Source: a virus
Taxonomy: Duplodnaviria > Caudoviricetes
DNA length: 64,000 nucleotides
Virus record (IMG/VR): IMGVR_UViG_3300009183_000091
Span: 1,681 to 65,680 of that record
Reading direction: 5' to 3' (one strand)
The translations under genes were made by a program, and so were the position numbers. Of the stretch, positions 10,887 through 63,536 are shown piece by piece (positions within the stretch are counted from its first letter, which is position 1; the number at the start of each line of letters is the position of its first letter). The notes beneath the pieces were generated by a model. It worked only from the letters and a program-made list of their open reading frames with translations. It was not told the DNA's origin and made no database searches.

Positions 10887-10887
10887 G

Positions 10888-11175: not shown

Positions 11176-11180
11176 AAGAT

Positions 11181-12323: not shown

Positions 12324-12325
12324 TA

Positions 12326-12622: not shown

Positions 12623-12687
12623 TTACTAACGCTGGGCGTGACTAGCTACGAAAGTGGCTGGTCATTCTGCCCTCTAAACTTTACAAC

Positions 12688-13002
12688 ATGAGCTGGCATC
12701 ATTGGATAGAAGAACATCATCCAGAAGCGGACATAAACTACGATTACTTACTTGAATTAGCAATAAGTAGTTATAGCTTAATGAAGAAGTCAAGGAAGAT
12801 GGGCCACATAGATAGAGTCCATTACATAATAATGTGGTGGTACAAACATAAACATAAGTTTAAAACATATAACACTACAGTAAAGCTAGGTATAGCATTA
12901 GAGATTCATCACGCTACAGTAATTCATTACTATAAACGTAGAAAAATATCAAGAATATACGAAGAAGAAACAAAATGTATTAAAGACTTTATAGAAAGCT
13001 AA
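12688..13002 (+). CDS. DnaA C-terminal-like HTH DNA-binding protein
   Basis: LGIALEIHHATVIHY resembles the DnaA domain IV signature; coupled to dnaB. Confidence 0.6.
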   Translation: MSWHHWIEEHHPEADINYDYLLELAISSYSLMKKSRKMGHIDRVHYIIMWWYKHKHKFKTYNTTVKLGIALEIHHATVIHYYKRRKISRIYEEETKCIKDFIES

Positions 13003-14381: not shown

Positions 14382-14383
14382 TT

Positions 14384-14848
14384 ATGTACGAAAAGAATGT
14401 AGAACTATTCAAAGGAGTAGAAAGAAAGTTTGCTAAGGCAATAGATACAATGGGTAAGGTTGGCTTCTCAACAAAGGAACAAGATATGCATGAGCATTGG
14501 GATGTATCACTTACCATGCAGATTGATGTCAAGGCTATGAAGAAAAAACATAGGGGAGACGAGACTACCAATGAAAATATCCACTATGTAGAGTTGAAAA
14601 ATGTTTTAGGTAATCCTGGTTGGTTGTATGGTGAAGCTCACTACTTTGCCTTTGAGCTAGAGGATTATTGGTTAATGGTTGATAAGATTAGGTTACAGGA
14701 GTTTATTAAAGATAAATGTGCGTCCAAAGAATGGTCAGAGATACCTGATTTTTACAAACTCACTCAAAGAAAAACAAGACAAGACATAATTACTCTTGTA
14801 AAAACAATAGATTTAATGTTTATTTGTGATAAAATTATAAAGAAATGA
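14384..14848 (+). CDS. putative PD-(D/E)XK-fold nuclease
   Basis: HWD..IDVKA and ELKN..GWLYG motifs. Confidence 0.55.
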   Translation: MYEKNVELFKGVERKFAKAIDTMGKVGFSTKEQDMHEHWDVSLTMQIDVKAMKKKHRGDETTNENIHYVELKNVLGNPGWLYGEAHYFAFELEDYWLMVDKIRLQEFIKDKCASKEWSEIPDFYKLTQRKTRQDIITLVKTIDLMFICDKIIKK

Positions 14849-15090
14849 AAACACCAGAAGAAAAAGCTACAGAAATATTCATCGAGTATTACAGATGGGT
14901 ACGAATAATGGGATTCAATATTGAAGCCGAAAAACTATTAGATGCAATAGCTATAGATATGGCCTTAACATCTGTTAACTTCACCCTAGATAGTCACAAC
15001 ACTAAGGATGAGATAATATATTGGAGTCAAGTAAAGAAGTCACTAATCAGTAAGTTACCAAACGGTAAGTTACCAGACAGTAAGCTATGA
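14845..15090 (+). CDS. small MxPxEKA-family protein
   Basis: MKTPEEKATE...YWSQVKKSL, similar to 62335-62550. Confidence 0.6.
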   Translation: MKTPEEKATEIFIEYYRWVRIMGFNIEAEKLLDAIAIDMALTSVNFTLDSHNTKDEIIYWSQVKKSLISKLPNGKLPDSKL

Positions 15091-15213
15091 GAAGAAGAAG
15101 AATAAATTTGAATAAAAAAGTTTTTAATAAGCTTGGTATATATTTTAGACGTAAATTTTTAAAACTAATAAAGTCAATAAGAGTAAAAAAAGATTATAGT
15201 CATCGCATCAATA

Positions 15214-15498
15214 ATGAGTTCGATTAATCCTGACATCTATTGTGTCAATGTTACACTAAGGGTAGTATTCCCTTCTAAGTCTAAATATATAGCCCCACAG
15301 GTTCGTAAAATACTATTAGATAGAATACCTATGCTGCTACTAAATGAACAGCCGATACATAAAGAAAAAGAGAAGCTATATAGAAAAGTATTCGATGAAT
15401 ACATCCATAAAGGAGACTTCAGTAAATACAAATTCATTATAGATAATGTAGAAATAGTTAAATTTTTATCTAAAATTTGCTATGAATATACTTTTTGA
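15214..15498 (+). CDS. hypothetical protein
   Basis: 94-aa ORF. Confidence 0.6.
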   Translation: MSSINPDIYCVNVTLRVVFPSKSKYIAPQVRKILLDRIPMLLLNEQPIHKEKEKLYRKVFDEYIHKGDFSKYKFIIDNVEIVKFLSKICYEYTF

Positions 15499-15528
15499 TT
15501 ACATTTGCTAACCTTTAAATAAAATAGA

Positions 15529-16140
15529 ATGGAAAAACAATTATTACAAGTGCTTGATTTTCAGAATGCTTTTGGAATATCTAGCCCAGACAAACCTAAG
15601 ATGTTGTCTAAGAAAAGAGCTACACTAAGACAACGACTACTAGAAGAAGAAGTTGGAGAACTTAGAGAAGCCAAAAATACTATCGAAGTAGCTGATGCGC
15701 TTATTGATATTCTATACATTACGTGTGGAACAATCCATGAGTACGGACTAGGAGATAGAGCTGTAATACTATTTGATGAGGTTCACCGTTCTAACATGTC
15801 AAAGGTTGGTCCTGATGGTAAAGCTATCTTCAGGGCAGACGGTAAAGTAATGAAGCCTGAAACATATTCAGAGCCTAAGCTACAGCCAATAATTGAAAGA
15901 GACTTCTCTCTATACAAAGAAAGTGAAGTGCTTAAAGAATTAGCAGCTATATCAAAACAAGAAACAGAAGATGTTATTGTGGCTAAGATTAAAAACAAAT
16001 TGAAACTATTTGATAGATTTTTATTCTGGTTAAACATTAAAATAGAAGATAGATTGAAGAAGAAAATAGAAGTTAAGTTTCCTACTACTGTAGATGGACG
16101 AGTGATCGTTAAAGTTTATGACGAGGAATACGCAGTATGA
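15529..16140 (+). CDS. MazG-like / PRA-PH-like NTP pyrophosphohydrolase
   Basis: LLEEEVGEL..ADALIDILY..FDEVHRSNMSK..RADGKVMKP; TACATTTG promoter at 15500-15507. Confidence 0.85.
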   Translation: MEKQLLQVLDFQNAFGISSPDKPKMLSKKRATLRQRLLEEEVGELREAKNTIEVADALIDILYITCGTIHEYGLGDRAVILFDEVHRSNMSKVGPDGKAIFRADGKVMKPETYSEPKLQPIIERDFSLYKESEVLKELAAISKQETEDVIVAKIKNKLKLFDRFLFWLNIKIEDRLKKKIEVKFPTTVDGRVIVKVYDEEYAV

Positions 16141-16511
16141 TTAAGTACTCAAAATATGGCAATACAAAAATAGTTGTTGATGGAGTTAAGTTTGACTCTA
16201 AGATGGAGATGTATTGCTATGATTTACTTACTCAAATGAAATTTGAATTTGAATTTCAAAAAAAAATAATCCTTATAGATAGTTTTAAGTACAACAAGAA
16301 AGCAATAAGGCCAATTACATTAATTGTAGATTTCGTAATCACCCATGAAGGTATAGAGCATTACGTTGACATTAAGGGCTTCGCTACAGATGTATCTAAG
16401 ATTAAATATAAGATGCTACGTTATCAGCTTAAAGATAACCCAAAGACAGATGTTATATGGCTATATACAAAAAAATCCATATATCAATTTTTAATTAACT
16501 TAAAAGAATAA
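16137..16511 (+). CDS. DUF1064-family endonuclease
   Basis: SKYGN...DGVKFDSKME..Y; VDF..VDIKG. Confidence 0.8.
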   Translation: MIKYSKYGNTKIVVDGVKFDSKMEMYCYDLLTQMKFEFEFQKKIILIDSFKYNKKAIRPITLIVDFVITHEGIEHYVDIKGFATDVSKIKYKMLRYQLKDNPKTDVIWLYTKKSIYQFLINLKE

Positions 16512-16513
16512 AG

Positions 16514-16951
16514 ATGAGTGTAAACAAAGTGGTTTTATTAGGTAATGTCGGTTCAATAAACATTGTATCGTTTGACAATGGAGGTAAGATGGTTAATATC
16601 TCCGTAGCTACAACAGAAAGCTACAAGAAAGGTGAAGAGTGGATCAACAAAACAGAGTGGCATAGATGCTCTTGTGGAATCCCAGCAGTAGTAGAACGTG
16701 CTGACAGAATCAATAAAGGGGATATGGTTTACCTTGAAGGATCTATTGTTACTAGAACATGGGAGAAAGAAGGTGAGAAGAAAGAATCAAAAGAGATTTC
16801 CTTTAATAAAATTCAAGTAATTAGTAGAGGTAATAAATTAGAAGAAGAATCAGGAGAAGAATCATTCGTTCCTAAGACTAAGGCTGAGCCTAAATCAGCT
16901 AAGCAAGTATTAGCTAAGATGGATGACAATGATGATTTGCCTTTTAATTAG
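16514..16951 (+). CDS. ssb: single-stranded DNA-binding protein
   Basis: VNKVVLLGNVG, TEWHR, KGDMVYLEG, acidic DDLPF tail. Confidence 0.95.
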   Translation: MSVNKVVLLGNVGSINIVSFDNGGKMVNISVATTESYKKGEEWINKTEWHRCSCGIPAVVERADRINKGDMVYLEGSIVTRTWEKEGEKKESKEISFNKIQVISRGNKLEEESGEESFVPKTKAEPKSAKQVLAKMDDNDDLPFN

Positions 16952-16996
16952 GAGTTATAGTACCTCGTAATAAAAAACTAAAAAAAAATATAGATT

Positions 16997-17230
16997 ATGT
17001 CAAAATACATTGTAGATATTACACCAGAAGATATTGGTGAGATAATTCAGATGATACGTATTCAGCATTTCAAGATGCATGTAGATCCATTCGCAGAGAA
17101 GATAGGGGTAAAATCTAAGGTTGTTATCCAGGCAGAAGAAGGAAGAGGCCCACATGGAATACTATTATTGAAAAAGATAAATGATGTATTTCCTACTATA
17201 GGAGTTTCTCTAGAAATAGAGTTCAAGTAA
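16997..17230 (+). CDS. XRE-family HTH protein
   Basis: IGEIIQMIR..FAEKIGVKSKVVIQAEEG. Confidence 0.7.
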   Translation: MSKYIVDITPEDIGEIIQMIRIQHFKMHVDPFAEKIGVKSKVVIQAEEGRGPHGILLLKKINDVFPTIGVSLEIEFK

Positions 17231-44788: not shown

Positions 44789-44816
44789 CAAATATACGAA
44801 TTATTTATTATATTTG
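44789..44816. promoter_or_regulatory. back-to-back Bacteroidota -7 elements
   Basis: TATATTTG on - (44789-44796) and on + (44809-44816). Confidence 0.7.
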
Positions 44817-44904
44817 TTGTGTCAGGTAGCAGTGACAATTAAGAAATTTATATAAATCCCTATGATGAAAGAACTGCTACTCTGGATTCATAGGGTTTTT
44901 TATT
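44817..44904 (+). ncRNA. structured 5' leader: two hairpins with complementary loops, the second terminator-like
   Basis: GTAGCAGT (44826-44833) complementary to loop ACTGCTAC (44873-44880); CCCTATGA/TCATAGGG stem plus T run. Confidence 0.7.
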
Positions 44905-45354
44905 ATGGAAGAAATTTGGGAAAAAGTATCGTGGGCAAAAAATTATTTGATTTCTAACTTAGGGAATGTTTTTTCATTGAAGTCAAAAAGATTAATGAAA
45001 AAAAATGTAAGCAATAGAGGTTATGAGCGAGTTACTATAAAAGGAAAACAAGTATCAGTACATAGATTGGTTTGCGTTGCTTTTTTAGGAGAAAATAAAA
45101 ATAAAAAAATAGTAAATCATAAAAATGGAATAAAAACAGATAACAGAATTGAAAATTTAGAATGGGTAACTTGTAGAGAAAATACAATGCATTATTATTC
45201 TTCTATTCCTCTTAGGGAAATAAAGTTAAAAACATGTATTAGATATGAAAAATGGATGTATATAAATGGAAAAAATAGATCTATAGGAAGGTTTAAAACA
45301 CCCGAAGAAGCAATTAAAGCATATTATGATAAATTAAAAACTATAAATTTATAG
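44905..45354 (+). CDS. NUMOD4-HNH homing endonuclease with AP2-like tail, antisense to the late operon
   Basis: EEIW..YLISNLG; VHRLV..VNHKNGIKTDNRIENLEW; IGRFKTPEEA. Confidence 0.9.
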   Translation: MEEIWEKVSWAKNYLISNLGNVFSLKSKRLMKKNVSNRGYERVTIKGKQVSVHRLVCVAFLGENKNKKIVNHKNGIKTDNRIENLEWVTCRENTMHYYSSIPLREIKLKTCIRYEKWMYINGKNRSIGRFKTPEEAIKAYYDKLKTINL

Positions 45355-51443: not shown

Positions 51444-53675
51444 TTATTGAGGAGGTAAACTTTCTTGAGATTGTACAGCTAACTTAGCTGCTTCTCTCTC
51501 ATTCTTAGCTCCTTCCTTCACTGCAATCTTCTCCATTTCTTGCTGATGTGCCATTTGCTCCATGCCCATTTGCTGCTGTTGAGCCGCTTGTTGTTGTTGA
51601 GCCATCTGATCTTGCATCTGTGCTTGTTGCTGTAATCCTTGCTCCACTCCTTGCTGTTGTGCTTGAGTAGCCATAGATTGTGCTTGCATTTTAAGTCTGT
51701 TGTAATTTCTTAATTCTCTAGCGATGACATCTGGGCTAGCTCTATTAAAGAGATTAGCGAAAATTACTTGGTCTATTAAACCAGCTTGCAACAAAGTAAA
51801 TAGTAATTGATTTCCTGCGTTTACTCCTGCCTCAGCAGATTCAGAACGCTTGATAAATATTCTATAGTCCTGTAATAAGTGATCCTCTGTAAGAGTAATG
51901 TTCTGTAATCCTTTATCTCCTACCATCATAGCTAACTTACGAGGATTGTCAAAGTAAACAGCTTTACCTACAGTAGCCATGTGTTCGTATGCTTGTTTTA
52001 ATATAGATGTCAAGGCCCAATAGAAAGGCTCTTGAACTAATGAACCTCTTTGAATTTGAGCTTCTACTACACCTACTAACATATCTCCACCTCCCTGAGT
52101 TCCTGTCATCGCTTCATTAACACCTGTAACGTCTTGAATTGATTGCTGAATAGTTTGTACTGCCTGGAACATTTGTAGTGTCCCCTGACCAATGTTTGTA
52201 CCATAAGTACCAATAGCATTCTGTACTGAACCTACTCTATCTGTATCTACAAAGATTGGCTTAGATGCATTGATGTTTCTCATTACGTCAGCTTCTCCAT
52301 CTCTATCGTCTACAGCAGATTTAGATATTACAGTACCAGTACCCCTCATGTTTGACATTTGAGATTCTACTACAGACAATGTTCTATTTAAGAACCTTTG
52401 TGGATCTATGACATCATCAAGAGGCGTAAGTACTTCTCCACGATCATATACCCACGTATAGCATTTGTACGGAAATTTAACATTCGATGGTTCATATAAA
52501 TTCTTTTCTTGGTATGGTAATATTCCACACTCTAATATAATGTCTCCATCAGCACTACCTAACTCCTCAGCAGGAATCATAATAGCGTATCTCATGACAT
52601 CTACATAGATCGTGTGTTTCTTCTTCTTTCCTAATTCTTCTTTATGTGCTTCTGTTTGTGGCTCTATCAAGTCTTTGTCTTTATACTTAGAGTCACTATC
52701 ATTAATCATGGTGTATTGTGGATAACCAAAATCATCCATCACCCATCCGTATTCTTTTCTTTCAACGTCTTTCCAATATACTTCATAAACAGGAATCTTT
52801 CCACCAGGCTGCATGTAGATACCATTAACGATCTTATGCATGATATTAGACCTATTGTTCTTTCCGTACTCCTCAATTAATAGTCTTTCGTCTTTAGTTA
52901 AGTCTTCATACGTTTCATAGATACTAGGAGCATCCATGTAGTACCATTCTCCCATGTGTTCAGCATCTGATAAATCAGGTTTAGTAGCTGACATATCCCA
53001 CAAAAAGAATAATGGATTAACGGATTTAGCCATGTAGTTGTCATTCAACTCATATCCTTTATAGATACCTAATCCACAAATAGCCAAGTTACGAGTAATC
53101 TGTACTTTTAACTCATCTATATTTATCTCCTGTGCGATGTATTCTATAAGGTTATTGATGTCTTGTTCGTATTCCTCAACGAAAGTGTTGTAGAACAGCT
53201 CCTCTGTCGTCACAGCGTCATCCTGTACTGGTGAGTTCTCCTTGATTATATCTTTAAAGAATGGAAACTCATCTGCTATCTTTTGAAGAACTCTTATTTT
53301 CTTGATTTCTTCTTCTCTTTTATTGATTACAAAATCAGAGATACAAGTAGCCTTAGCATCGAATCCTAATCGTATAGCATTACCAATGTATTGTTGTACC
53401 ATTGGCTTGATTACGTTCTTAGTCCATTTCAAACGGTTACGGATGTCTCCTGATTCATCAAGGAAGAAAGCCTCTACATCTTCATCAAATATCCATTGTC
53501 CATCTTGACCTCTAAAGAATGACCAGTTTACAATACATTTATTTATAAATTGTCTGTAAAGGAAATTACTCATTGAAGACAAAACATACTTAGCATAATC
53601 TCTATGGTAAGTTTTATCTTTTATTCTAGTAAGTTTATTAGGTCTTACTCTATTTTGACTGAACATGTAACTCAT
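51444..53675 (-). CDS. portal protein
   Basis: NVIKPMV..IG, DPQRFLN, QDVTGVNEAMTG, Q-rich C-terminal barrel. Confidence 0.9.
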   Translation of the reverse strand: MSYMFSQNRVRPNKLTRIKDKTYHRDYAKYVLSSMSNFLYRQFINKCIVNWSFFRGQDGQWIFDEDVEAFFLDESGDIRNRLKWTKNVIKPMVQQYIGNAIRLGFDAKATCISDFVINKREEEIKKIRVLQKIADEFPFFKDIIKENSPVQDDAVTTEELFYNTFVEEYEQDINNLIEYIAQEINIDELKVQITRNLAICGLGIYKGYELNDNYMAKSVNPLFFLWDMSATKPDLSDAEHMGEWYYMDAPSIYETYEDLTKDERLLIEEYGKNNRSNIMHKIVNGIYMQPGGKIPVYEVYWKDVERKEYGWVMDDFGYPQYTMINDSDSKYKDKDLIEPQTEAHKEELGKKKKHTIYVDVMRYAIMIPAEELGSADGDIILECGILPYQEKNLYEPSNVKFPYKCYTWVYDRGEVLTPLDDVIDPQRFLNRTLSVVESQMSNMRGTGTVISKSAVDDRDGEADVMRNINASKPIFVDTDRVGSVQNAIGTYGTNIGQGTLQMFQAVQTIQQSIQDVTGVNEAMTGTQGGGDMLVGVVEAQIQRGSLVQEPFYWALTSILKQAYEHMATVGKAVYFDNPRKLAMMVGDKGLQNITLTEDHLLQDYRIFIKRSESAEAGVNAGNQLLFTLLQAGLIDQVIFANLFNRASPDVIARELRNYNRLKMQAQSMATQAQQQGVEQGLQQQAQMQDQMAQQQQAAQQQQMGMEQMAHQQEMEKIAVKEGAKNEREAAKLAVQSQESLPPQ

Positions 53676-54238
53676 CGTAGTACATCATTTATTTTAACAA
53701 GGATCTCTTTCTTCGTCTTTCTATCTTTAACTTTCACACCGTATGAAGTCTCTAGTCGTTTTACCATATCAGGTAGCTCTTCATGAATCTTCACAAGTAA
53801 GTCAGTATATTTTTTCTTCTCATCTACTTCCATTGAAGCTAACTCAGAAGAACCAACCATCACCATCTCATTGAGCATCTCAAACATATATTCACTAAGT
53901 AGCTTTGCTCGTAGTCTATACTCTGGATTAAACTCTTCCATTTTTTTAATGGCTTCTCTAATCTCTACAGGTATATCACCATCTATCAATGCTTTAAGAT
54001 TCCTTTGTTGTTGATACGTTTTACCAAAAACAATCTCTAAAGCTCTACTCAATCTCTCTCTCTTGTCGCTCAACTTGTACAAAGGACTTGTTCTGTTTCC
54101 TAGTAACCAGCAGAGTCTTACTTCTTTTGCTTTAAGGTTCTTAAACTCATCTATCTGAGCTAATTCAGGATATTCTATTCTTAGATCATCTCCTGACTCT
54201 AAACCAAAAAGCACTATTTCAACTTCTTTTTGTGCCAT
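53672..54238 (-). CDS. hypothetical protein upstream of portal (terminase small subunit candidate)
   Basis: 188 aa helical; coupled to portal; TATCTTTG at 54280-54287. Confidence 0.45.
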   Translation of the reverse strand: MAQKEVEIVLFGLESGDDLRIEYPELAQIDEFKNLKAKEVRLCWLLGNRTSPLYKLSDKRERLSRALEIVFGKTYQQQRNLKALIDGDIPVEIREAIKKMEEFNPEYRLRAKLLSEYMFEMLNEMVMVGSSELASMEVDEKKKYTDLLVKIHEELPDMVKRLETSYGVKVKDRKTKKEILVKINDVLR

Positions 54239-54299
54239 AAATTTAATAAAAAAGGGTAGAGAAATTAATCCCTACCCCACAAAGATAATAATTTTTTAA

Positions 54300-55139
54300 T
54301 TATACAGCAGGACAACCTTGGTAATTAGCAGCCTGAGCTAAAGAAGCAACAGCCCATGAACCATTCAAGATTGAAGTTAACTTAGTTACAGTAGCAGCAG
54401 TATTTGCTCCAGCAGTATTTAAATAAACTAAAGAAGTAGCATTTCTGATTACACCTAATCCAGATACAGCATTGTGACGAATCACACTTCGGTGTAAGAT
54501 AATGTAACGATTATAAACAGGACCAGTAACTAAAGCAGCATTAGGAAAGTATCTTAATACTTCAGTAACAGTTCCAACTGGAGCTACCCATGCAGTAGAG
54601 CTAGTAATCATAGCAGGAGTAATTCCTGGTACATTGATTTCAACAAATAAAGGACCAGCTAAAGCAGAAAGAGCAGTGATACGAACAATGTCACCAGCTA
54701 CAGAAGCAGCAGTAAAGTATGCAGATGGATCAGCAGCAATACGAGCAACAAAAGCAGCTTGTAATTCAGCTACAGTTGGAGTAGCATCAACAGAAACTGT
54801 GTAAGTACGAGGGATGTAAACGGCTCTAGTCTCTTGACCACCTCCAAAGAAGTTTTGTACGTAAGGAGCAGAAATTGTCAAAGAGTAAATGTTGTTAGCA
54901 ACAAGTACAGCAGTAGTTAAATCAACATCTACTACGTTAGGAGTTCCAGTAAGGTTAGCTGCATCATAGCGAAACCCTAACAAGTCACATGCTTTAAGAA
55001 CAACTGCATTAGCTCCTGTTGCATCTTTAACTGTTAATACTCCGTTAGCTAACACTACATCTGTTGCAACTGTTGGTGCATTCAAGACAGAGATACTATC
55101 TAACTCTTGAACTCTTGGTAATTTGTAATTAAAATTCAT
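54300..55139 (-). CDS. putative auxiliary capsid / decoration protein
   Basis: A/T/V-rich; own promoter (55214-55221) and terminator-like hairpin (about 54250-54278). Confidence 0.55.
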   Translation of the reverse strand: MNFNYKLPRVQELDSISVLNAPTVATDVVLANGVLTVKDATGANAVVLKACDLLGFRYDAANLTGTPNVVDVDLTTAVLVANNIYSLTISAPYVQNFFGGGQETRAVYIPRTYTVSVDATPTVAELQAAFVARIAADPSAYFTAASVAGDIVRITALSALAGPLFVEINVPGITPAMITSSTAWVAPVGTVTEVLRYFPNAALVTGPVYNRYIILHRSVIRHNAVSGLGVIRNATSLVYLNTAGANTAATVTKLTSILNGSWAVASLAQAANYQGCPAV

Positions 55140-55191
55140 AATAAAAAAATTTAGTCACTGATATTTCTATCTGTGTTGTTAATTAAAAAAC

Positions 55192-55206
55192 TTAACACTG
55201 TGTTAA
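55192..55206. promoter_or_regulatory. perfect palindrome, candidate operator
   Basis: TTAACAC-T-GTGTTAA next to the promoter at 55214-55221. Confidence 0.45.
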
Positions 55207-55254
55207 ATCCTGACAAAGATATAAAAAATTTTAAATATGTTTTTTTTGGGAATA

Positions 55255-55470
55255 AAGATTAAGATTAAATTATAATTTATTATGATTTAATTTTTATTTT
55301 TATTTCTTTTTTCTTTTTCTCTTTTTTTTCTTTTTAGATTATGTATAGAGTATATATATTTATATATATACGAATATATATAATCGTTTTTCTTTTTTGA
55401 TTAATTCTTTTTTGGTTCTTTTTTCTTATTAAACTTTTTTCTTTGTTTTTCTTTTTTTTCTCTTTCAGAA
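55255..55470. repeat. AT-rich low-complexity tract (TTTTTC runs around a TA-repeat core)
   Basis: Visible composition; lies between divergent promoters. Confidence 0.7.
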
Positions 55471-55519
55471 GTTATTTCTAAAAAAGTGTTAAAATATTTT
55501 TCGATTAAAAAAACTTTAA

Positions 55520-55527
55520 TAACTTTG
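55520..55527 (+). promoter_or_regulatory. Bacteroidota -7 element
   Basis: TAACTTTG. Confidence 0.7.
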
Positions 55528-55529
55528 TC

Positions 55530-55605
55530 TCGCTTTGAATGGATGATGATTTCATTTGATTTTACTTTGTTGAGAAGGGAGTGAAGGTTAGTAGCTCCCT
55601 TTTTT
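55530..55605 (+). ncRNA. candidate small antisense RNA targeting early-gene start regions
   Basis: Bounded by promoter 55520-55527 and terminator AAGGGAG/CTCCCTT plus T run; contains TTTCAT..ATTTTACTTTGTTGA. Confidence 0.55.
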
Positions 55606-55619
55606 AAACCCTAAGAATT

Positions 55620-55979
55620 ATGAGTTATAAAGTTGTATGTAAAAACGATAAAGGTATGCCGAAGGATTTTCCTGCTAAGTATTGGATTAAGTCTGGAGAA
55701 GTTTATACAGTTATTGATGCTAAGGAGATGGCATACAACAGAATGGCATTAGGATATAAGTTAGAAGAGATTGATATGCCAGAGGATTGTGTGTATCAGT
55801 ATTTTCTAGCGAATAGATTTGTTCCTCAATCAGATGATTTAGAAGCTGAGATGGCTATGCAAGAATTACTTGATGAGGTAAATGAGATTGTCCCCGAAGT
55901 ACAAGGGGTCGTAGGTCAACTAAGGCGATGTGTAAGGACAGTTTACTTGCTAACGCACACTCTAGTTCCTGAATCGTAA
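55620..55979 (+). CDS. hypothetical protein (SH3-like N-part; 3' end overlaps structured sequence)
   Basis: KVVCKND..GEVYTV..YKLEE..F.ANRF. Confidence 0.65.
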   Translation: MSYKVVCKNDKGMPKDFPAKYWIKSGEVYTVIDAKEMAYNRMALGYKLEEIDMPEDCVYQYFLANRFVPQSDDLEAEMAMQELLDEVNEIVPEVQGVVGQLRRCVRTVYLLTHTLVPES

Positions 55980-56026
55980 GTCAGGCAAAGTTGGCAACTC
56001 TTTCGGTCATATTAAAAGTTGCACAT

Positions 56027-56089
56027 AGTCAGGTGGCGGAAGGGTAAACGCACTACAATCAGCAACAGGTTCGAGTCCTGTCCTGACTA
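56027..56089 (+). ncRNA. tRNA-like element lacking a normal anticodon arm
   Basis: AGTCAGG/CCTGACT acceptor, TGGCGGAA..GGTAAACGC D arm, ACAGG-TTCGAGT-CCTGT T arm; only 13 nt between the D and T arms. Confidence 0.7.
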
Positions 56090-56094
56090 CAATA

Positions 56095-56179
56095 AGCACG
56101 TAAACCTAAGTACCTGTACAGCGGTGAGTAACGGGCTAAGTTAGATACAATTCCTCGTGCTGGGAGTAGAATGCTTAGG
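56095..56179 (+). ncRNA. candidate pseudoknotted RNA between tRNA-like elements
   Basis: CCTAAGTA/TGCTTAGG closing stem, two internal hairpins, AGCACG/CGTGCT loop pairing. Confidence 0.45.
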
Positions 56180-56192
56180 AGCGTGTTTTTAT

Positions 56193-56265
56193 AGCCAAGT
56201 AGCTTAGTGGTAAAGCCCGACCTTTTAAGTCGGAGTACGCAGAGTTCGATTCTTTGTCTTGGCTC
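56193..56265 (+). tRNA. tRNA-Lys(UUU), atypical
   Basis: AGCCAAG/CTTGGCT acceptor, GCTT/AAGC D stem, CCGAC-CTTTTAA-GTCGG anticodon arm, GTTCGATTC T loop; no encoded CCA. Confidence 0.7.
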
Positions 56266-56277
56266 AAAAAATTTTAT

Positions 56278-57033
56278 ATGTATCAATTAGTAACTGAGCT
56301 TAACAAGTTCAACAACGTAGTCTTCAATGAAGAAGATCACTCTTATTACCTTAACTTTAAAAGATGTGTATCAACAACAGAACTTATTGGAAGATATAAG
56401 AAGAAGTTTGAGACAGACATCATGGCCTATAAAGTGGCTGTTCGTGATGGAAGAACTTTCAATGATGTAATAGCTGAGTGGGATGATAAGAGAATAACAT
56501 CTCAAGTAAAAGGAACAGAGCTTCATAAATGCGCTGAGCTTATGTTTCAAAGTAAAGGATATAAACCTGATCCTATCGTAACAGATAAGCTATATAAAAT
56601 GTTACATCAGTTTCATGCTGACTATAAGGATAACCTGGCTTTGGTGAGAGCAGAGCTTGTAGTAGGAGATGATACCTATGGCGTATGTGGAATGCTTGAT
56701 AAGTTGTTCTATAATATAGAAGAAGATGAGCTTCAAATATGGGATTATAAGACGAACAAAGAAATCAATATGAAGAGTAAGTATAAGGCTAAGATGATTA
56801 ATGGCTTAAATCACTTAGAAGAGTGCGAATACAACACTTATTCACTACAATTAAGTATATATAAAAAAATAATTGAGAAAAACACTAGTTTAAAAATTGG
56901 AAAATCATATCTTTGCTGGATTAACGAGGAAAATGATTCATATCAAGTAATAGAAACTAAATATTTTGATACGGAATCTACTCTAATGCTAAACAATAGA
57001 ATAGATGAGTACAACTTCAGCTTATTCGAGTAA
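56278..57033 (+). CDS. PD-(D/E)XK (Cas4/RecB-like) exonuclease (start moved to ATG 56278)
   Basis: F.EEDHSY, KGTELH, CGMLD, IWDYKTN, YSLQLSIY. Confidence 0.85.
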   Translation: MYQLVTELNKFNNVVFNEEDHSYYLNFKRCVSTTELIGRYKKKFETDIMAYKVAVRDGRTFNDVIAEWDDKRITSQVKGTELHKCAELMFQSKGYKPDPIVTDKLYKMLHQFHADYKDNLALVRAELVVGDDTYGVCGMLDKLFYNIEEDELQIWDYKTNKEINMKSKYKAKMINGLNHLEECEYNTYSLQLSIYKKIIEKNTSLKIGKSYLCWINEENDSYQVIETKYFDTESTLMLNNRIDEYNFSLFE

Positions 57034-57355
57034 TAAACTCAAACAGGTAATAGATAATAAAACAGATCACTTTATTACTAAGTCATTTGTGTCTGCTGCT
57101 TTTGAACATGAAAGAAGAAAAACAGAATACCACCTGTATTGGTATAATGCTAAGAAAGGGATATACAATGACTTCCATAGATACCAATGCTTATCCCATA
57201 AGTTACTAAACAAAAGAGAAATGAAATTGTTTCTTCAACTTGTAAATGAATACAAAAAAGAAATAGAATCTGAAGATGGTATAATATGGGTTAATAAAGA
57301 TATAGGATTCAATAAAGATAAAGTTATTATTCCTCAGTATCAGTTATTAGTCTAA
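57005..57355 (+). CDS. hypothetical protein
   Basis: 116-aa ORF overlapping the nuclease end. Confidence 0.6.
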   Translation: MSTTSAYSSNKLKQVIDNKTDHFITKSFVSAAFEHERRKTEYHLYWYNAKKGIYNDFHRYQCLSHKLLNKREMKLFLQLVNEYKKEIESEDGIIWVNKDIGFNKDKVIIPQYQLLV

Positions 57356-59401
57356 TATCTTTAGAATCTTACCTGTCGCCTTATCAACTCTTGCCTTCTT
57401 CATTCTGTAATTCGTTTCTTTCGATTGGACAAATCGTATCTCAACATTAGTTATCCCACCTTCAGTTTTTATATTCTCAGGCTCATACCTGGCGTGAGCA
57501 ATACTATTTATGTAAGCAAAGGTTATAGCGAATATAGCATCATCATAATCATATCGTGGATCAGCTGCCTGATACCTCGTTTGCCTATGACTTGTCTGGC
57601 TCTTTAAATCTTTCTCCACAAAAGTCTTCAACTGCTCCCACAACCAAGGAATATCAATGTTATTACTATACGCCTCAAGCATCTCTTCCAGCTTAGCCAT
57701 AATCCTAGGTGCTGTATTAGCCTTATTCGATATACCAAACCATTTACCACCATGCGTATGGAAATATTCTGGCAACTGAGCGTTAGCAGTAAACTTAGTC
57801 TTGAATCCATGCATCTCCTGAAAGTCAATATGCATATCCCCAATGTTATTCTCTACTAATTCCTTAACGCCACCTCTTCCTATCTGATCATAGTACAAAC
57901 TCTGCAACAGAACCTGTAGATACGTCTGCTTAAACTTCCTATCTCTGTGGAAGACTACGGATGATACAGCATTCGTCAATGAATCCCATATAGCACTACA
58001 CATCATAGAGTGTCCTGTCTCAGAGTTGATGGGGTCAGTCCCTTGATACCACCTATTCTTCCATTTCTCCCCTGCTGGAGGGTGATGAATGATAACAGCA
58101 GATGTAGATACGTCCTCCCTTGCTCCTGTTGACACCCATTTAGCTCCTATAATCTTAAATTCAGTCAATAAATCAGGTGTTGGCCTACTTAAATCTAGTA
58201 TAGGCTCAAAATAACCGTATTCTAACGGCTTATCCATACCATAAATATCATTTAATCGCTGATTACAGGTATGAATAGGCACTAAAGTACGTGATTTACG
58301 TAGGAACATGTCATCTATCGTGATAGGATAATGCTGATGAAACTGAACCTTCGCTACATCCCCCTTTTTTGTCCCTTCAAGTGCTAAATAAGCCTTTCTC
58401 TCATTATTAATGTGAGCATCATTAACGCCTCGCCTTGCGTAAGCATTAAAGAATAGAGGTATAATACCATAGTCATAGTTTTTTTCTTTCCATTGTTTAA
58501 GACACATCTTAAATTCAGACTCAAATACAGAGCCTCCTTTATCCATCTCTCCTCCTGTACCCCATGCTAAGAACTGTTGCTGCATAGTCATTTTCTTAGT
58601 CTCAGGATTGTACTTAAATAAGGCTGGTCTACCTTCCCTCATCATCTCACCAAATATCTCAAATAAACCAATCTCATCAATGAATACCGCTGATGGAGAT
58701 CCACCATTTATAGCATCTACAGCTGGAGTATCTACCTGGAAGCGTGATGCACCCCCATCCTCTCGACCTTTCTTGTCTCCTTTCTTATCGAATGACATTA
58801 CCTGGTCTGTCCAGTTCTTTACTTCTTGAGCGATAACATCAGGTAGCTTAGTGTATGTCCACTTCACCTTATCTCTAAATATCTCCACGCCCTTATCTTT
58901 GGAGTGTGTAACAAATTTAATGAAATATGATTTATTGAAGTTTACACGCTTCATTCCTGCTAGACACATCGTAGTGGTAAAACCAATCTGTCGTGCTTTA
59001 CCGATCATTAGTGAATAACCACAGTCGAATAAGAATAGTAATACTTTCTGAGCGTCCCAGGCTTGATATAATAGCATACCATTCTCAGACCTATCTTCTT
59101 TGATATATCCGTACTTATTACAGAAGAATAGCGTATTATCCTTACATCGCTGTATCTCTCGTAGCAACCATTCTATCTGGTCGTCTTCTGTATCATAGTC
59201 TAGTATATCGGAATCATCCTGAAGCCATAGGTCAGCTTGCCTACAGTATATCTCAAATGGCTCGTGATAAATTTTATTCTGCCATCCACTATTGATTGAA
59301 TTGATCCAATCTACAAATGGTTTTGGGTACTCAAATTCTGCGTGTGAAGGTTTCCATTCATCTGTGCGAATATCGAGTATCTCTTTATTTCTTTTACTCA
59401 T
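57347..59401 (-). CDS. terL: terminase large subunit
   Basis: KARQIGFTT Walker A, VFIDEIG Walker B, WGTGG, GTDP, ENN, YDDAIFA. Confidence 0.95.
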   Translation of the reverse strand: MSKRNKEILDIRTDEWKPSHAEFEYPKPFVDWINSINSGWQNKIYHEPFEIYCRQADLWLQDDSDILDYDTEDDQIEWLLREIQRCKDNTLFFCNKYGYIKEDRSENGMLLYQAWDAQKVLLFLFDCGYSLMIGKARQIGFTTTMCLAGMKRVNFNKSYFIKFVTHSKDKGVEIFRDKVKWTYTKLPDVIAQEVKNWTDQVMSFDKKGDKKGREDGGASRFQVDTPAVDAINGGSPSAVFIDEIGLFEIFGEMMREGRPALFKYNPETKKMTMQQQFLAWGTGGEMDKGGSVFESEFKMCLKQWKEKNYDYGIIPLFFNAYARRGVNDAHINNERKAYLALEGTKKGDVAKVQFHQHYPITIDDMFLRKSRTLVPIHTCNQRLNDIYGMDKPLEYGYFEPILDLSRPTPDLLTEFKIIGAKWVSTGAREDVSTSAVIIHHPPAGEKWKNRWYQGTDPINSETGHSMMCSAIWDSLTNAVSSVVFHRDRKFKQTYLQVLLQSLYYDQIGRGGVKELVENNIGDMHIDFQEMHGFKTKFTANAQLPEYFHTHGGKWFGISNKANTAPRIMAKLEEMLEAYSNNIDIPWLWEQLKTFVEKDLKSQTSHRQTRYQAADPRYDYDDAIFAITFAYINSIAHARYEPENIKTEGGITNVEIRFVQSKETNYRMKKARVDKATGKILKILD

Positions 59402-59467
59402 GTCACAAATTTAGCAAATATTCGGGACAAAAGAAAAGCCCACCGTATTTAGTGAGCTTAATTGATA

Positions 59468-59632
59468 TTAATATCCTTTATCTCTTGTGTATGCTTCCGA
59501 TTGCTTAGCTGCTATGTCATCAGAAGTATAATAGCCTGTATCAGACTTCTTTTTATTCTTCTTCATCTTGTCGTACTTATCGTAAGCCTTTTTAATTAGC
59601 TTAGGATCTATGCCTGAAGTTTTATTCAACAT
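59468..59632 (-). CDS. 54-aa Lys-rich protein (not in ORF track)
   Basis: MLNKTSGIDPKLIKKAYDK...; TAATG coupling; followed by a terminator-like hairpin at about 59430-59460. Confidence 0.6.
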   Translation of the reverse strand: MLNKTSGIDPKLIKKAYDKYDKMKKNKKKSDTGYYTSDDIAAKQSEAYTRDKGY

Positions 59633-59883
59633 TAGTTTATTTTTGTATCTCTTATCTTTCTTGATACAATATTTCCAGCTTGATTGTATCGTTCTTTTTC
59701 TACACGTTTTCCTCCTCCAGGCATACTGTAAACTTCTTTTACTTTTTTACCTCCTTTAGATTCAATACGTTTTCCTTCAACTTCTTTACCATCAAACTCA
59801 GAAGAAATAGTAGATACATTTCTGCCTGTAGCTTTGTTATAAGCATTAGCTACTAATTCTTTTAATTTTTTAGGTTTATCCAT
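59632..59883 (-). CDS. small Lys-rich protein
   Basis: 83 aa, TAATG-coupled on both sides. Confidence 0.65.
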   Translation of the reverse strand: MDKPKKLKELVANAYNKATGRNVSTISSEFDGKEVEGKRIESKGGKKVKEVYSMPGGGKRVEKERYNQAGNIVSRKIRDTKIN

Positions 59884-60050
59884 TATTTTTTCTTTTTAAA
59901 CCTAGACATAAAGTCTTCTTTCTTCTCTTTTTTCTTAGACTCACCTTTCTCGTGTTTAGCCTCAGCTTTCTTAGAAGAGTACTTTTCTTCAGCCATTGTT
60001 CCAGGATATTCTGTAACCATCATAGCTTTTTTTAACGCATTTCTTTTCAT
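59883..60050 (-). CDS. 55-aa Lys-rich protein (not in ORF track)
   Basis: MKRNALKKAM..HEKGESKKKEKKE; TAATG coupling. Confidence 0.65.
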   Translation of the reverse strand: MKRNALKKAMMVTEYPGTMAEEKYSSKKAEAKHEKGESKKKEKKEDFMSRFKKKK

Positions 60051-60199
60051 TAGTACTTACAGTATTTAGTAGATGAGTTTTCTTTTTGAAGTTTAAATGG
60101 CCCTGGCTTTGAATTAGATTCAGTACCTACTGAGCTATTACCTTTGTCTCCTTTACTCTTAGTGTAGAAAACTTGTTTTGTGTTTTTTCCTGTTTCCAT
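60050..60199 (-). CDS. 49-aa Lys/Ser-rich protein (not in ORF track)
   Basis: METGKNTK...KYCKY; TAATG coupling. Confidence 0.6.
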   Translation of the reverse strand: METGKNTKQVFYTKSKGDKGNSSVGTESNSKPGPFKLQKENSSTKYCKY

Positions 60200-60369
60200 T
60201 AGTTTGAAAATTTAGATTTTGAATTTACATGTGTTAATTTAATCTTAGGCTTATCAATATTCATATCTTGCTTAAAATCAGGTTGAGCAGCAGGCCTTCC
60301 CTCTACTCTTCCTTTGTCTGTATAGCTTCCGTTCTTATCTGGGTTAGAAGCCCAATATTTATCTTTCAT
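60199..60369 (-). CDS. 56-aa basic protein (not in ORF track)
   Basis: MKDKYWASNPDK...; TAATG coupling. Confidence 0.6.
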   Translation of the reverse strand: MKDKYWASNPDKNGSYTDKGRVEGRPAAQPDFKQDMNIDKPKIKLTHVNSKSKFSN

Positions 60370-60373
60370 AAGA

Positions 60374-60721
60374 TTATTTATTTTTTTTAGCTTTAGCTAC
60401 TTCTTTCTCGTAAGCAGATCTTTGACTAGTCATACTATTATACCCAGAATTGCTACCTCTTCTTCCTGAATCAAAAGCTCCATGAGGATTCGCTACATCA
60501 GAACTCTTATAATCTTGACCATAAGTCAATTCATAAGCCTTATTTAAAAGAGGTTTATTAGCCGTAGCCTTACCAGCTTTATAAGGTGTATTAGCGGATG
60601 TATCAGCAGCAGTAGCTCCTTTAGTTTTCATATAAGATTGAAAAGGAGTATTAGGTGGATCTTTTTTAATTGTTTTAGCTTTGTTAATTGCTGCGCTTAA
60701 TGCTTTTTTTAAGTTTGCCAT
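60374..60721 (-). CDS. basic low-complexity protein (start moved to MANLKKA)
   Basis: TATCTTTG promoter at 60736-60743 lies just upstream of ATG 60721. Confidence 0.65.
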   Translation of the reverse strand: MANLKKALSAAINKAKTIKKDPPNTPFQSYMKTKGATAADTSANTPYKAGKATANKPLLNKAYELTYGQDYKSSDVANPHGAFDSGRRGSNSGYNSMTSQRSAYEKEVAKAKKNK

Positions 60722-60763
60722 AAGATTATTTTTGTCAAAGATATAAAAAATATAATAACACAA

Positions 60764-60940
60764 TTATCTACCAAGAGTGAAAAAATTTACCGCAACATCA
60801 TACGCCTGGTGTAGTAATTTTATATGATGCTCCTCTTTATCCTTATCATCAAATACTATCCTAACAGATGCCTGCTTCTTAACCATTAAGAACATCTCAA
60901 CGACATTACACATCTCTTCTATCTGCGGATTGATTCTCAT
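60764..60940 (-). CDS. 58-aa hypothetical protein (not in ORF track)
   Basis: MRINPQIEEMC...; ATGA overlap with the phosphoesterase stop. Confidence 0.55.
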   Translation of the reverse strand: MRINPQIEEMCNVVEMFLMVKKQASVRIVFDDKDKEEHHIKLLHQAYDVAVNFFTLGR

Positions 60941-61815
60941 AACGGAAATTTAGTACTATCTATTTGTTTCACTAATATATCAGAATCATCTTTACGTATT
61001 CTTTTATGACTTATAGTAAGTATTCTTCCTCCTACAGGTTTAGGTGGCGCACCTCTCTCAACATGCCATCCTTTGCTACCATCCTCATACTCCTCCTTAT
61101 ACGTTCCAGTAATCATAAGATGCATTTCCTTTAATACATTTTTAAATCCTGTCTTAGGCGAACAAACTACAGTATCTCTAACATCATTACGACAACTATT
61201 CTCGTGTATATGTCCCATAGAGAATACATCAAATCCTTCATACATTTCTAATGCCCTAGTAAGGTTTAATGCTCCTTTAGTTACTACACCACCGCCTCCT
61301 GATCCATGGAAGTACTTTAGTTTTGTAGAAGAGTAAGTTGCCCCACGAGCAAGTACATTAAAATTAATCCATCCACCATAGCCTCCTGTATATACATTGG
61401 ACTTACATTTATAGTTAAGCAAGTCTACAAATCGTTGTAGTATATCTGTCTCCTGCCACTTGATAATTGCTGTTTCATGATTACCATATCCTATAACAGT
61501 CATAAGATGTGCGTATGGAGTAAACCATTCTACAGCTGTCTCAACTATGCTATCTAGGTATTTAGCGTTGTTATGCTCTGGGCGAATATCAGACTTATTC
61601 TTTCTTCGATCTCCCTGCCCCTGCATTAAACAAAAAAAGTCCCCATTGAAAACAATAGGGATATTCTCTGATACGCAATAATCTAAATTTCTTTTAAGCA
61701 AGTCCCAATCGCACTTAGGATTATCCCAATGTATATCCGACAGCATAGCTATCTTCACATCCATACCCTCTAACTTTATCTCGTGGATATTCTTAGTGTG
61801 TTTAATTACGTTCAT
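60937..61815 (-). CDS. calcineurin-like metallophosphoesterase
   Basis: SDIH, NGD, GNHE, FHG, GHIH motifs. Confidence 0.9.
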   Translation of the reverse strand: MNVIKHTKNIHEIKLEGMDVKIAMLSDIHWDNPKCDWDLLKRNLDYCVSENIPIVFNGDFFCLMQGQGDRRKNKSDIRPEHNNAKYLDSIVETAVEWFTPYAHLMTVIGYGNHETAIIKWQETDILQRFVDLLNYKCKSNVYTGGYGGWINFNVLARGATYSSTKLKYFHGSGGGGVVTKGALNLTRALEMYEGFDVFSMGHIHENSCRNDVRDTVVCSPKTGFKNVLKEMHLMITGTYKEEYEDGSKGWHVERGAPPKPVGGRILTISHKRIRKDDSDILVKQIDSTKFPL

Positions 61816-62342
61816 ATAATTTCTTTTAAGTCGATTCCTCTTTTCGGGAACTCTGATTCATACTTCTTCACTGCGAGAAATAAACTTTTAATTGACCCTC
61901 TGTAGAAATAAACTGGATTAACCATGTATGTTCTTTTGTTTCTTTTTACTGTGAATCGAATAACATCCTTTTCGCATAAAATCTTTAATGATTTAATAAT
62001 GAATTTCATGTTAGTGCCTAATGATCCATGTAAATCTCTTATAGTCCAATCCTTTATTTTATTATCGTACCCCATGTTCTTTGCGAAGAGCAATGTGAGT
62101 TTGTTTGTGGATTTGCTTAGAGTTTCCATTACGTCAAGCCCTTCGGCAAAAGTAATGAAATATCTCATGCGCTTTCTTTTAAGAAGTTGTTTAAGGACTT
62201 CCTGTACTTCTGGGGAGTACGCTTCTGCCAATGGAACTATCTCGCCAGTGTGATCCTTGTAGTATAGCTCCAGGTCTTTTTGTTTAAGGAAGCTAATCTT
62301 ATCAGCCTCCATTAGTATCATGTCGTATAGTATGCTACTCAT
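61812..62342 (-). CDS. RepL-like winged-HTH protein
   Basis: HTH followed by YMVNPVYFYRG. Confidence 0.7.
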   Translation of the reverse strand: MSSILYDMILMEADKISFLKQKDLELYYKDHTGEIVPLAEAYSPEVQEVLKQLLKRKRMRYFITFAEGLDVMETLSKSTNKLTLLFAKNMGYDNKIKDWTIRDLHGSLGTNMKFIIKSLKILCEKDVIRFTVKRNKRTYMVNPVYFYRGSIKSLFLAVKKYESEFPKRGIDLKEII

Positions 62343-62550
62343 ATTTCTTTAGTTCTTGTTTAACTTCTTCATAGTATTCTATTTCATTTCTATTCTGCCA
62401 GCTATGAAATTTAAGAGCTTCTATTGTATTTTTTACATCTGATAAAGCACACTTAGATGCCTCGTACTCAGATATAGTATTCTCTAATAGCATACTGAAT
62501 AGAACGTAGTAATCATTTACTAACTCCTTTGCTTTATCCTTCGGACTCAT
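62335..62550 (-). CDS. small MxPxEKA-family protein
   Basis: MSPKDKAKELV...YYEEVKQEL. Confidence 0.65.
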   Translation of the reverse strand: MSPKDKAKELVNDYYVLFSMLLENTISEYEASKCALSDVKNTIEALKFHSWQNRNEIEYYEEVKQELKKYE

Positions 62551-62849
62551 TTCTTTCTATTATTAATTATTGATTCTACATTTAGCTTAACCTTCTTGAG
62601 ATAGGATATACTTTCCTTATGCTTGACATGCTCATAGAAGATAAGCCCATTCAATGCTCTCTCGAACTCCTCTATATTCATGCTACCCTTCAACTTGTTA
62701 CAGTCTCCGCAGGCAGGCATCTTGTTATTGTTACTTAACTTCCCTCCTCTACTCTTAGGATAAAGGTGATCTACAGTTCTACTATATTCATCTAATGATT
62801 GTTTACAGTAAACGCAGACGGATAAGTCCACCCCTGCTTTAGTTATCAT
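62547..62849 (-). CDS. HNH endonuclease (McrA-like, Zn-binding)
   Basis: CVYC..TVDHLYPKSRGG..N..ACGDCN..KG. Confidence 0.9.
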   Translation of the reverse strand: MITKAGVDLSVCVYCKQSLDEYSRTVDHLYPKSRGGKLSNNNKMPACGDCNKLKGSMNIEEFERALNGLIFYEHVKHKESISYLKKVKLNVESIINNRKK

Positions 62850-63079
62850 AGCTTAAAGTTTATTTCCTTAGCTAGTTCTGATATAAACTCACTACTACTA
62901 TCTCCTTCCAGCCCTGCCTCTATATTCACTCCATCACTTAACCCATCAATGTATGCTTCTAAAGCTACATCTACTACTAGCTTCTTCATCTCATCACTCA
63001 GAGAAGCTATCATCTTATAATCAATTAGTCTTTCCATATTTATTTTTCTAAAGTTAATCTCCATTCTACAATTTGACAA
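62846..63079 (-). CDS. hypothetical protein
   Basis: ORF coupled to the HNH gene; true start uncertain. Confidence 0.55.
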   Translation of the reverse strand: MSNCRMEINFRKINMERLIDYKMIASLSDEMKKLVVDVALEAYIDGLSDGVNIEAGLEGDSSSEFISELAKEINFKL

Positions 63080-63536
63080 TATTTACATTTTTTTGGGACA
63101 AGCAATTTTTTATCTATAAGCTTATATGAATCATTAAATATATCCCAACTATGAGTATGGTTTTTATATAAAAATTTTATAAACCAATCTGCTATTCTTC
63201 TCTTCATAAACCAAAGCTAATAACTATAAATTTAATTACCAAACTATTTAAGAATAATTAACTGTGGCACAGTAGTTGATAACCGCCCTCTTCCTTTTTA
63301 CCTAAAATAAGCATACTTTGTTATTCTAAATAGCCAACAGTTTGTTGGCCAAAAGGACACCACTTAAAACACTGACACTTAAAGACTTAGCACTTTCTTC
63401 CTTTTATAGTTTATTACCTATAATCTAATTGTAATGATACGATGCCAATCAGCACCCCTAAGAAGCACTCTGCATACTATATTATTCTTTGTAGAAGAAA
63501 GTGCCTTATAATGCATATTATACTATTTTTTTAAAG

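Follow-up and report, generated by a model that had tools for sequence, protein, structure and literature searches.

Within the stretch of phage DNA analysed here (the window, 64,000 nt, bases 1681-65680 of a 65,680-nt record from an uncultured virus with 33.5% G+C), a short non-coding unit at 55520-55605 is bounded, on sequence evidence only, by its own promoter and its own Rho-independent terminator, and carries between them an exact antisense copy of a tag found just upstream of seven early ATGs. From its context we take the unit to be the promoter-proximal leader of a rightward operon, and not a free-standing gene. We consider it quite possible, if still short of probable, that RNA derived from this leader represses the tagged early genes in trans.

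The phage (G000) is of an uncultured, Bacteroidota type, and the corresponding -7 box, TAnnTTTG, stands before many genes of the window. The unit occupies a 480-nt divergent region between the first late gene (54300-55139, minus strand) and a 119-aa gene (55620, plus strand); the surrounding gene blocks and all features of the unit and its candidate targets are collected in Table 1. A blastn search of deposited phages with positions 54000-58000 returned no match. Among 14 public sequencing runs, all with small shares, four (two of RNA, one of RNA according to its record and one probably of DNA) yielded contigs covering the 3' part of the 119-aa gene and the tRNA region; this cover excludes 55520-55605 and is uninformative about the unit either way.

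Table 1. Features of the window discussed in the text (positions are those of the window).
Feature	Position	Strand	Remarks
Early and replication genes	1-17230	+	
Virion genes	17223-55139	-	
Short cluster: 119-aa gene, tRNA-Lys, exonuclease	55620-57355	+	
Genes including terminase	57347-63207	-	
Target motif AACAAAGTAA before ATG at 30	19-28	+	
Target motif before ATG at 274	263-272	+	ORF shorter than 30 aa
Target motif before ATG at 392	380-389	+	274-aa gene
Target motif before ATG at 1236	1224-1233	+	
Target motif before ATG at 2000	1989-1998	+	13-nt match over 1989-2001
Target 15-mer, 7 nt before ATG at 2403	2381-2395	+	best match, ddG -15.0 kcal/mol, rank 1 of 104
Target motif before ATG at 7763	7752-7761	+	overlaps last codons and stop of the preceding gene
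Host-type (Bacteroidota) -7 promoter box TAACTTTG	55520-55527	+	read in sequence; conserved place
Predicted 74-nt leader / small RNA	55532-55605	+	5' end assumed about 5 nt past the box
5' hairpin, 55535-55543 paired with 55551-55559, TTTCAT in 3' arm	55535-55559	+	fold prediction
Single-stranded linker with seed TTACTTTGTT at 55562-55571	55559-55573	+	mean P(unpaired) 0.95
Intrinsic terminator: stem, loop TGAAGGTTAGTAG, T6	55572-55605	+	sequence and fold
119-aa gene	55620-55979	+	14 nt past the T-run

An earlier interpretation made from the letters alone (the sequence-only reading) had described a promoter at 55520-55527 and an intrinsic terminator enclosing about 75 nt, and this description was reproduced, with a length of about 74 nt and the six T residues at 55600-55605. 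The terminator is formed by the stem GAGAAGGGAGT/GCTCCCTT around a loop of 11-13 nt, followed directly by TTTTTT. A generic terminator scan found nothing at the unit because its loop limit was 8, shorter than the loop present here, and a relaxed scan recovered the hairpin. The predicted RNA has a folding energy of -18.8 kcal/mol (z = -2.24, with 4 of 200 shuffles equally stable; of the folds computed in this run, those of the window and of the related locus L201 were used), and the predicted order of its parts is a 5' hairpin, a free linker and the terminator. The seed is predicted to be unpaired with a probability of 0.95 and the adjacent TTTCAT with a probability of 0.09, the latter being base-paired within the 5' hairpin. 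An Rfam search of the whole window gave only tRNA at the gathering score, a permissive one over 55100-56300 gave only chance-level hits at E values up to 10, and ten related loci gave no Rfam matches; the unit did not match the Rfam C4 covariance model (P1/P7 c4, P4 CI) and belongs to no Rfam family.

The 119-aa gene starts 14 nt past the T-run and would be reachable only by read-through of the terminator. On the plus strand before the exonuclease gene, the only boxes are the unit's own TAACTTTG and one inside the 119-aa gene (55814). No family in PHROGs or Pfam was found for the 119-aa protein or for the neighbouring 279-aa protein. A second tRNA-like element lies at 56027-56089 and scored 40.4 bits against the Rfam tRNA model in a permissive scan; it was reported neither by ARAGORN nor by the whole-window Rfam scan at gathering threshold.

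The seed TTACTTTGTT is the reverse complement of AACAAAGTAA, which occurs nine times in the window against an expectation of 0.53; none of 100 shuffles reached nine. Seven plus-strand copies end 1-10 nt before the early ATGs listed in Table 1, and the sole minus-strand copy in the window is the one inside the unit, at 55562-55571. All of the complementarity described in the sequence-only reading could be verified, namely that of TTACTTTGTT to AACAAAGTAA before the genes at 30, 274, 392, 1236, 2000, 2403 and 7763, that of the linker 15-mer at 55559-55573, which is the exact reverse complement of 2381-2395, and the 13-nt match to 1989-2001. Extending the search to the whole 65,680-nt record adds a tenth copy, 316 nt upstream of the window and before a 62-aa ORF. 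The plus-strand copy at 51790-51799 lies inside the portal gene, on its non-coding strand, and is probably a chance occurrence.

The sequence-only reading had further proposed that TTTCAT, next to the seed, pairs with the ATGAA opening the target genes. It is correct that six of the seven motif-bearing genes open with ATGAA; the pairing itself is poorly compatible with the RNA, in which TTTCAT is buried in the 5' hairpin and separated from the seed by 6 nt, against 1-2 nt between the corresponding elements in most targets, so that TTTCAT and the seed cannot both pair without a bulge. The description of the targets as anti-defence genes found no backing: Pfam assigned no families to the seven target proteins, and PHROGs and Pfam together returned nothing for them. 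Likewise, the statement that the unit lies about 50 kb away from the early genes does not carry over to relatives, since in the relative G002 it lies 11 kb from the first early motif copy; the records of two relatives have direct terminal repeats, and the large distance is therefore an effect of where the linear record starts.

The early region holds further families of near-identical start-region cassettes besides AACAAAGTAA (3650-4300, 8700-9640, 11170 and 15515). The cassette GAATTTTAAATTAAAAGTT-ATG precedes 3663, 3826, 4055, 4292 and 11181, and the cassette CCTTTAAATCAGAATAGA-ATG precedes 8712, 8874, 9628 and 15529.

Conservation was examined in a set of 30 sequences, consisting of the window and 29 loci found by homology to the 279-aa protein encoded next to the unit. 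In 28 of the 30 a script detected, at the same position, a TAnnTTTG box with a hairpin and T-run 45-108 nt after it, and the remaining two (L025 and L028) have the same arrangement by eye, with an interrupted T-run. The terminator stems at the equivalent place are entirely different among distant relatives, and among close types one stem pair covaries (GGGAG/CTCCC versus AGAGAG/CTCTCT). As far as such comparison of sequences can tell, the promoter-to-terminator unit is real, and constraints at the level of RNA are visible in it.

The seed is present in eight of the 30 sequences, which fall into type A (the window and L031), type B (L010, L011, L023 and L024) and type C (L015 and L016). Eleven close relatives (types D and E) are seedless, and the other 11 are distant relatives. 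Type F (L180 and L201), which also bears the seed, and a variant of type B (L177) came from an independent scan of metagenomes that used the terminator as its anchor. In an alignment of types A, B, C and F (A1), all ten columns of the seed are invariant, as is the terminator, and the 5' half carries substitutions and indels. All four types are predicted to form a 5' hairpin with TTCAT in its 3' arm, a free seed (probability of being unpaired 0.68-0.99) and the terminator, and between types B and C a single compensatory pair separates the 5' hairpin stems (GTCATGA/TCATGAC versus ATCATGA/TCATGAT). Close relatives are nearly identical over much of the flanking intergenic sequence as well, so the invariance of the seed is weaker evidence than it appears. 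A viral scan for the seed together with the terminator returned eight stretches, seven of them from this phage group; the eighth, L234, is unrelated and was discarded as a chance match. The terminator loop was also considered as the true seed, pairing with TAACCTTTA start regions, and was rejected since it varies by type (GGTTA, GATTA, GATA, TAATA).

We read the genomic neighborhoods of five phages, two with the seed and the 119-aa gene (G000 and G002) and three with neither (G001, G003 and G007; loci L014, L021 and L019), the gene being mostly deleted in the latter. The unit persists ahead of the tRNA and exonuclease genes in these three phages in spite of the deletion. In all four seed types the 119-aa gene starts directly past the terminator, and the seed and this gene may simply form one recombination module. 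About 100 nt of the 3' end of the 119-aa gene are left between the leader and the tRNA genes in G001, G003 and G007. In G001, G002 and G003, two or three extra tail-fibre-like genes on the minus strand are inserted after a 116-aa gene.

Strength of pairing was measured as the cofold ddG over start regions, using gene lists of n = 104 for G000 and n = 101 for G002; the ORF at 274, being shorter than 30 aa, is outside the former list. RNAduplex without intramolecular structure was abandoned as a measure, as it produced long looped pseudo-duplexes that left targets indistinguishable. By cofold ddG the motif-bearing early genes rank at the top, as the sequence-only reading had anticipated: seven such start regions occupy ranks 1-7 of 104 in G000 (-15.0 to -10.8 kcal/mol, against a median of -4.1 kcal/mol for the list), and five occupy ranks 1-5 of 101 in G002 (-22.1 to -14.2 kcal/mol). 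No start-region outliers were seen by this measure in G001, G003 and G007.

The expectation that pairing exceeds that of shuffled sequence proved true for G002 and not for the window. When the 5' part of the RNA was replaced by its dinucleotide shuffles, these did as well as the window RNA in 16 of 55 cases for the best target and 19 of 55 for the seventh-best, and as well as the G002 RNA in 1 of 60 (best), 0 of 60 (third-best) and 2 of 60 (fifth-best). The 10-bp seed duplex of the window is AU-rich and weak, and a T-rich RNA pairs with A-rich start regions anyway. Complementarity in G002 runs on over ATGAAAACAGTAT, and the RNA of this phage mirrors AAAACAAAGTAATA of three start regions and, separately, CATGAAAACAGTAT (14 nt) of a 276-aa early gene. 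The mirror image in types B and C reaches into the coding part of an early gene, covering its start codon and three codons.

As a control for specificity, equal-length genome windows overlapping no start region were scored by the number of start regions in which they have a 10-nt exact complement. The window RNA has exact complements of at least 10 nt in eight start regions, and only 61 of 10,412 control windows in G000 (0.6%) matched at least eight; as many start regions as the G002 RNA were matched by 19 of 10,413 control windows (0.2%). The distant relative G004 gave no significant match, 1,046 of 9,860 control windows (10.6%) being equal at 10 nt, and for this reason the pairing of TTTAAAGGTT with AACCTTTAAA in G004 was dropped as support. 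Types D and E have no significant complementarity to their own start regions.

Co-variation of the seed with the early motif, which the sequence-only reading had made a test of the regulon, was not found in strict form. The seedless G001 (type D) retains the motif before four early genes that are orthologues of those in the window, and the seedless G007 (type E, a partial genome) retains it at at least three start regions, so the early motif does not depend on the RNA. G003 has no motif at its start regions, and G004 has none at all. Forward copies of the motif number nine and eight in the seed phages and five, three and zero in the seedless ones, which is a trend from five related genomes and not a test. 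The base after GTAA is A in five of nine G000 copies and T in four of eight G002 copies, and the RNA presents U and A opposite these, respectively; this is a hint of a one-base co-change, and G001 has the G002 variant without any seed. The antisense-regulon reading is thus only partly supported: the unit itself, its free and invariant seed and the ranking of its targets stand on one side, and the absence of strict co-variation, together with window pairing energies equal to those of shuffles, on the other.

The mechanism that we tentatively favor begins with the unit as the promoter-proximal leader of a small rightward operon (119-aa gene, tRNA-like element, tRNA-Lys and exonuclease). The host-type promoter TAACTTTG would start an RNA in which an unpaired linker joins a 5' hairpin to the intrinsic terminator; transcription would probably end at the terminator in most cases, giving an RNA of about 74 nt, and would otherwise continue into the operon genes. 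The TTACTTTGTT carried by the linker of types A, B, C and F would then pair with AACAAAGUAA, which stands in eight or nine early messages at -14 to -2, where the ribosome must land, and the accumulating terminated leader would lower translation of the whole early set together. The analysis establishes the sequence features and how they are conserved, the fold predicted for the RNA, how accessible its seed is and how its targets rank; that the phage makes such an RNA, that the transcript stops at the terminator, and that pairing takes place in the cell and is repressive, we infer.

A possible, less likely alternative is that the unit acts only in cis, as a leader or attenuator setting the amount of transcription from TAACTTTG into the operon, and that the antisense copy is a passenger without trans action, a 20-nt start-region cassette placed there in inverted orientation by recombination. 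In favor of this alternative, a further promoter would not fit ahead of the 119-aa gene, and three terminators of the window (5664-5709, 44858-44895 and 55575-55601) share a pattern of stem, TGAA, second stem arm and T-run, each following a TAnnTTTG box and ending 6-22 nt before a plus-strand ATG. Two of them belong to sister leaders at 5614-5733 and 44809-44907, which consist of a promoter, a first hairpin, a terminator with TGAA after its 5' arm, a T-run and an ATG, and the unit has the same order of parts as the kissing-loop leader-terminators of the group (promoter, hairpin 1, TGAA terminator, T-run, ATG within about 20 nt). At the locus of the unit, all eight distinct distant relatives have a kissing-loop leader in which 6-9 nt of the terminator loop are complementary to the 5' part, with a different sequence in each. 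The seed-bearing segment itself is a clean 20-nt addition (TTTCATTTGATTTTACTTTG) in type A relative to type E, and the opposite strand of this segment shows most of the motif, a spacer and ATGAAA, which together make up an almost complete start region. The abundance of repeated start-region cassettes in the genome makes stray copies plausible, seedless relatives are frequent (11 of 30 loci), and the equality of the window pairing energies with those of shuffles also fits a passenger.

Against a purely cis-acting leader, four types have preserved the seed without change and free of predicted pairing as their 5' halves diverged, and types B and C mirror an early gene across its start codon and three codons. 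Inspection by eye showed no upstream complement of GAGAAGGGAG that could act as an antiterminator against the 5' arm of the terminator, and none appears in the MFE and centroid folds. None of the five close-relative units tested has complementarity between loop and 5' part, their longest runs being 3-5 nt and equalled by 208-500 of 500 shuffles; in the window unit the longest is 4 nt, equalled by 338 of 500, which places it outside the kissing-loop group by this measure.

In the sister leader at 5614-5733, the terminator loop GTGAGATG matches the loop of the first hairpin, CATCTCAC, and a second copy of CATCTCAC abutting the ATG (5684-5691 versus 5723-5730). In the relatives L025 (GGATAT) and L027 (TGTTGG), the sequence of the 5' loop recurs at the start codon of the 119-aa gene. 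By their sequences, the leaders at 5614-5733, L025 and L027 demonstrably carry anti-start elements for their own genes, a point in favor of the trans reading. It is conceivable, although we would not call it likely, that all of these belong to a modular family of terminated leaders with anti-start elements, some of which act in cis (5614-5733, L025 and L027), and that 55520-55605 is a member retargeted in trans to the early tag.

It is improbable that the unit encodes a trans-acting small RNA whose real targets are host messages or other phage messages, the early start-region match then being a side effect of pairing between A-rich start regions and a T-rich RNA. This would agree with the retention of the three-part architecture in types D and E, which have other linkers and no phage target that stands out, and with the finding that shuffled T-rich RNAs pair as well as the window RNA does. 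The 15-nt exact match combined with matches of at least 10 nt to eight start regions is, however, rare among genome windows, as the control given above indicates.

An action of the 10-mer as DNA appears more doubtful still. It could be a protein site used in two orientations, or TTACTTTG could be a weak second promoter box for the 119-aa gene, since it fits five of the six fixed positions of TAnnTTTG and is one base off TAACTTTG, and none of the phages examined has the seed without also having the 119-aa gene. The early motif, however, stands at -14 to -2 of ATGs inside operons, without promoter spacing, and the similarity in relatives continues into ATGAAAACAGTAT, which a 10-bp site would not need. 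Transcription starting 5-8 nt past TTACTTTG would begin at the foot of the terminator stem and give an abortive product of about 30 nt, and distant relatives express the 119-aa gene without such a box. Least credible of all is that the copy functions on the minus strand as the ordinary start region of a tiny ORF, for although type A has the motif, 6 nt, an ATG and a 16-codon ORF, and the peptide that would begin in type F, behind a spacer of 20 nt, opens similarly (MKSSSIQSETKL versus MKKSSFRDKTKL), the ORF has only 10 codons in type B and four in type C, part of the similarity between A and F is the reverse complement of the plus-strand promoter box, and no known transcript covers it because the late promoter TATCTTTG (55221-55214) lies about 350 nt downstream on the minus strand.

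If the leader-derived RNA does repress in trans, its closest mechanistic counterparts are the c4 antisense RNA of phages P1 and P7 and the CI RNA of P4 (Rfam C4), short phage RNAs with exposed segments that pair with repeated sites on the phage's own messages and block the ribosome-binding region. The c4 RNA is cut out of the transcript that also carries its targets and has an immunity role in temperate phages, whereas the present unit is separate and lies about 10 kb from its targets. With respect to its position, the unit can be compared with the lambda 6S RNA (pR' to tR'), a promoter-proximal terminated leader without a known trans target, and with Listeria SreA, a leader- or riboswitch-derived RNA that also acts in trans. 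It shares with this class a constitutive promoter, a terminator within about 100 nt, a place directly ahead of an operon and, as predicted, a discrete small RNA; in contrast to it, neither an antiterminator protein nor a ligand-binding fold was identified at the unit.

Alongside c4, the closest parallel in mechanism would be FopS and GibS of Bacteroides thetaiotaomicron, of which the unit is also reminiscent in architecture; they are described as RNAs of 65-70 nt that have a canonical promoter, an accessible seed and a terminator and repress through pairing at start regions (PMC11697453). They are host RNAs with host targets and a seed at the 5' end (PMC11697453); the seed of the unit is flanked by the 5' hairpin and the terminator, and its RNA is at the same time the leader of an operon. 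No relationship between FopS/GibS and the unit was found by sequence or in Rfam.

The proposed role would be closest to that of T4 RegA, which stops numerous early and middle messages of its phage from being translated; the sites it occupies are rich in A+U and unstructured, lie at the AUG or immediately 5' of it and in some cases include UAA (PMC3014915). RegA is a 122-aa protein of loose specificity (PMC3014915), whereas the repressor proposed here is an RNA with an exact match of 10-15 nt. A full-text literature search and the matched passages of a 2025 review of phage small RNAs contained no small RNA that represses tagged early genes of its own phage, and in those passages the term 'early gene' occurs 0 times.

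Were the trans reading true, a small RNA would control a regulon of its own phage through a built-in tag, and a phage relying on host RNA polymerase would possess a fully RNA-based temporal switch. Were it true in the form of a retargeted leader, a virulent-looking Bacteroidota phage would time the shut-off of its earliest genes in this way, with an RNA counterpart of T4 RegA. Since the seed and tags are short and exact, the idea is open to direct test, and the seedless relatives provide natural controls. Without any trans action, the unit would still belong to a conserved class of leader-terminators of uncultured aquatic phages.

Two further observations concern the surroundings of the unit and its terminator scan. 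Between the divergent promoters, at 55230-55500, long polypyrimidine tracts (TTTTCTTTTTCTC...) flank an AT-rich near-palindrome (GTATATATATTTATATATATAC), and this arrangement is kept with different sequence even where the flanking protein of relatives is only about 50% identical; the region might serve as an origin of replication or have some other role at the DNA level. In many unrelated metagenome contigs (L138, L145, L147, L164, L210 and others), a hairpin of the form GGGAGTGAA-(2-6 nt)-AGTAGCTCCC followed by a T-run recurs after genes. The GAA / AGUA pair of strands in this hairpin may resemble a sarcin-ricin or loop E module. The hairpin was found in 81 distinct contexts from 100 stretches, with a T-rich tail in 25.
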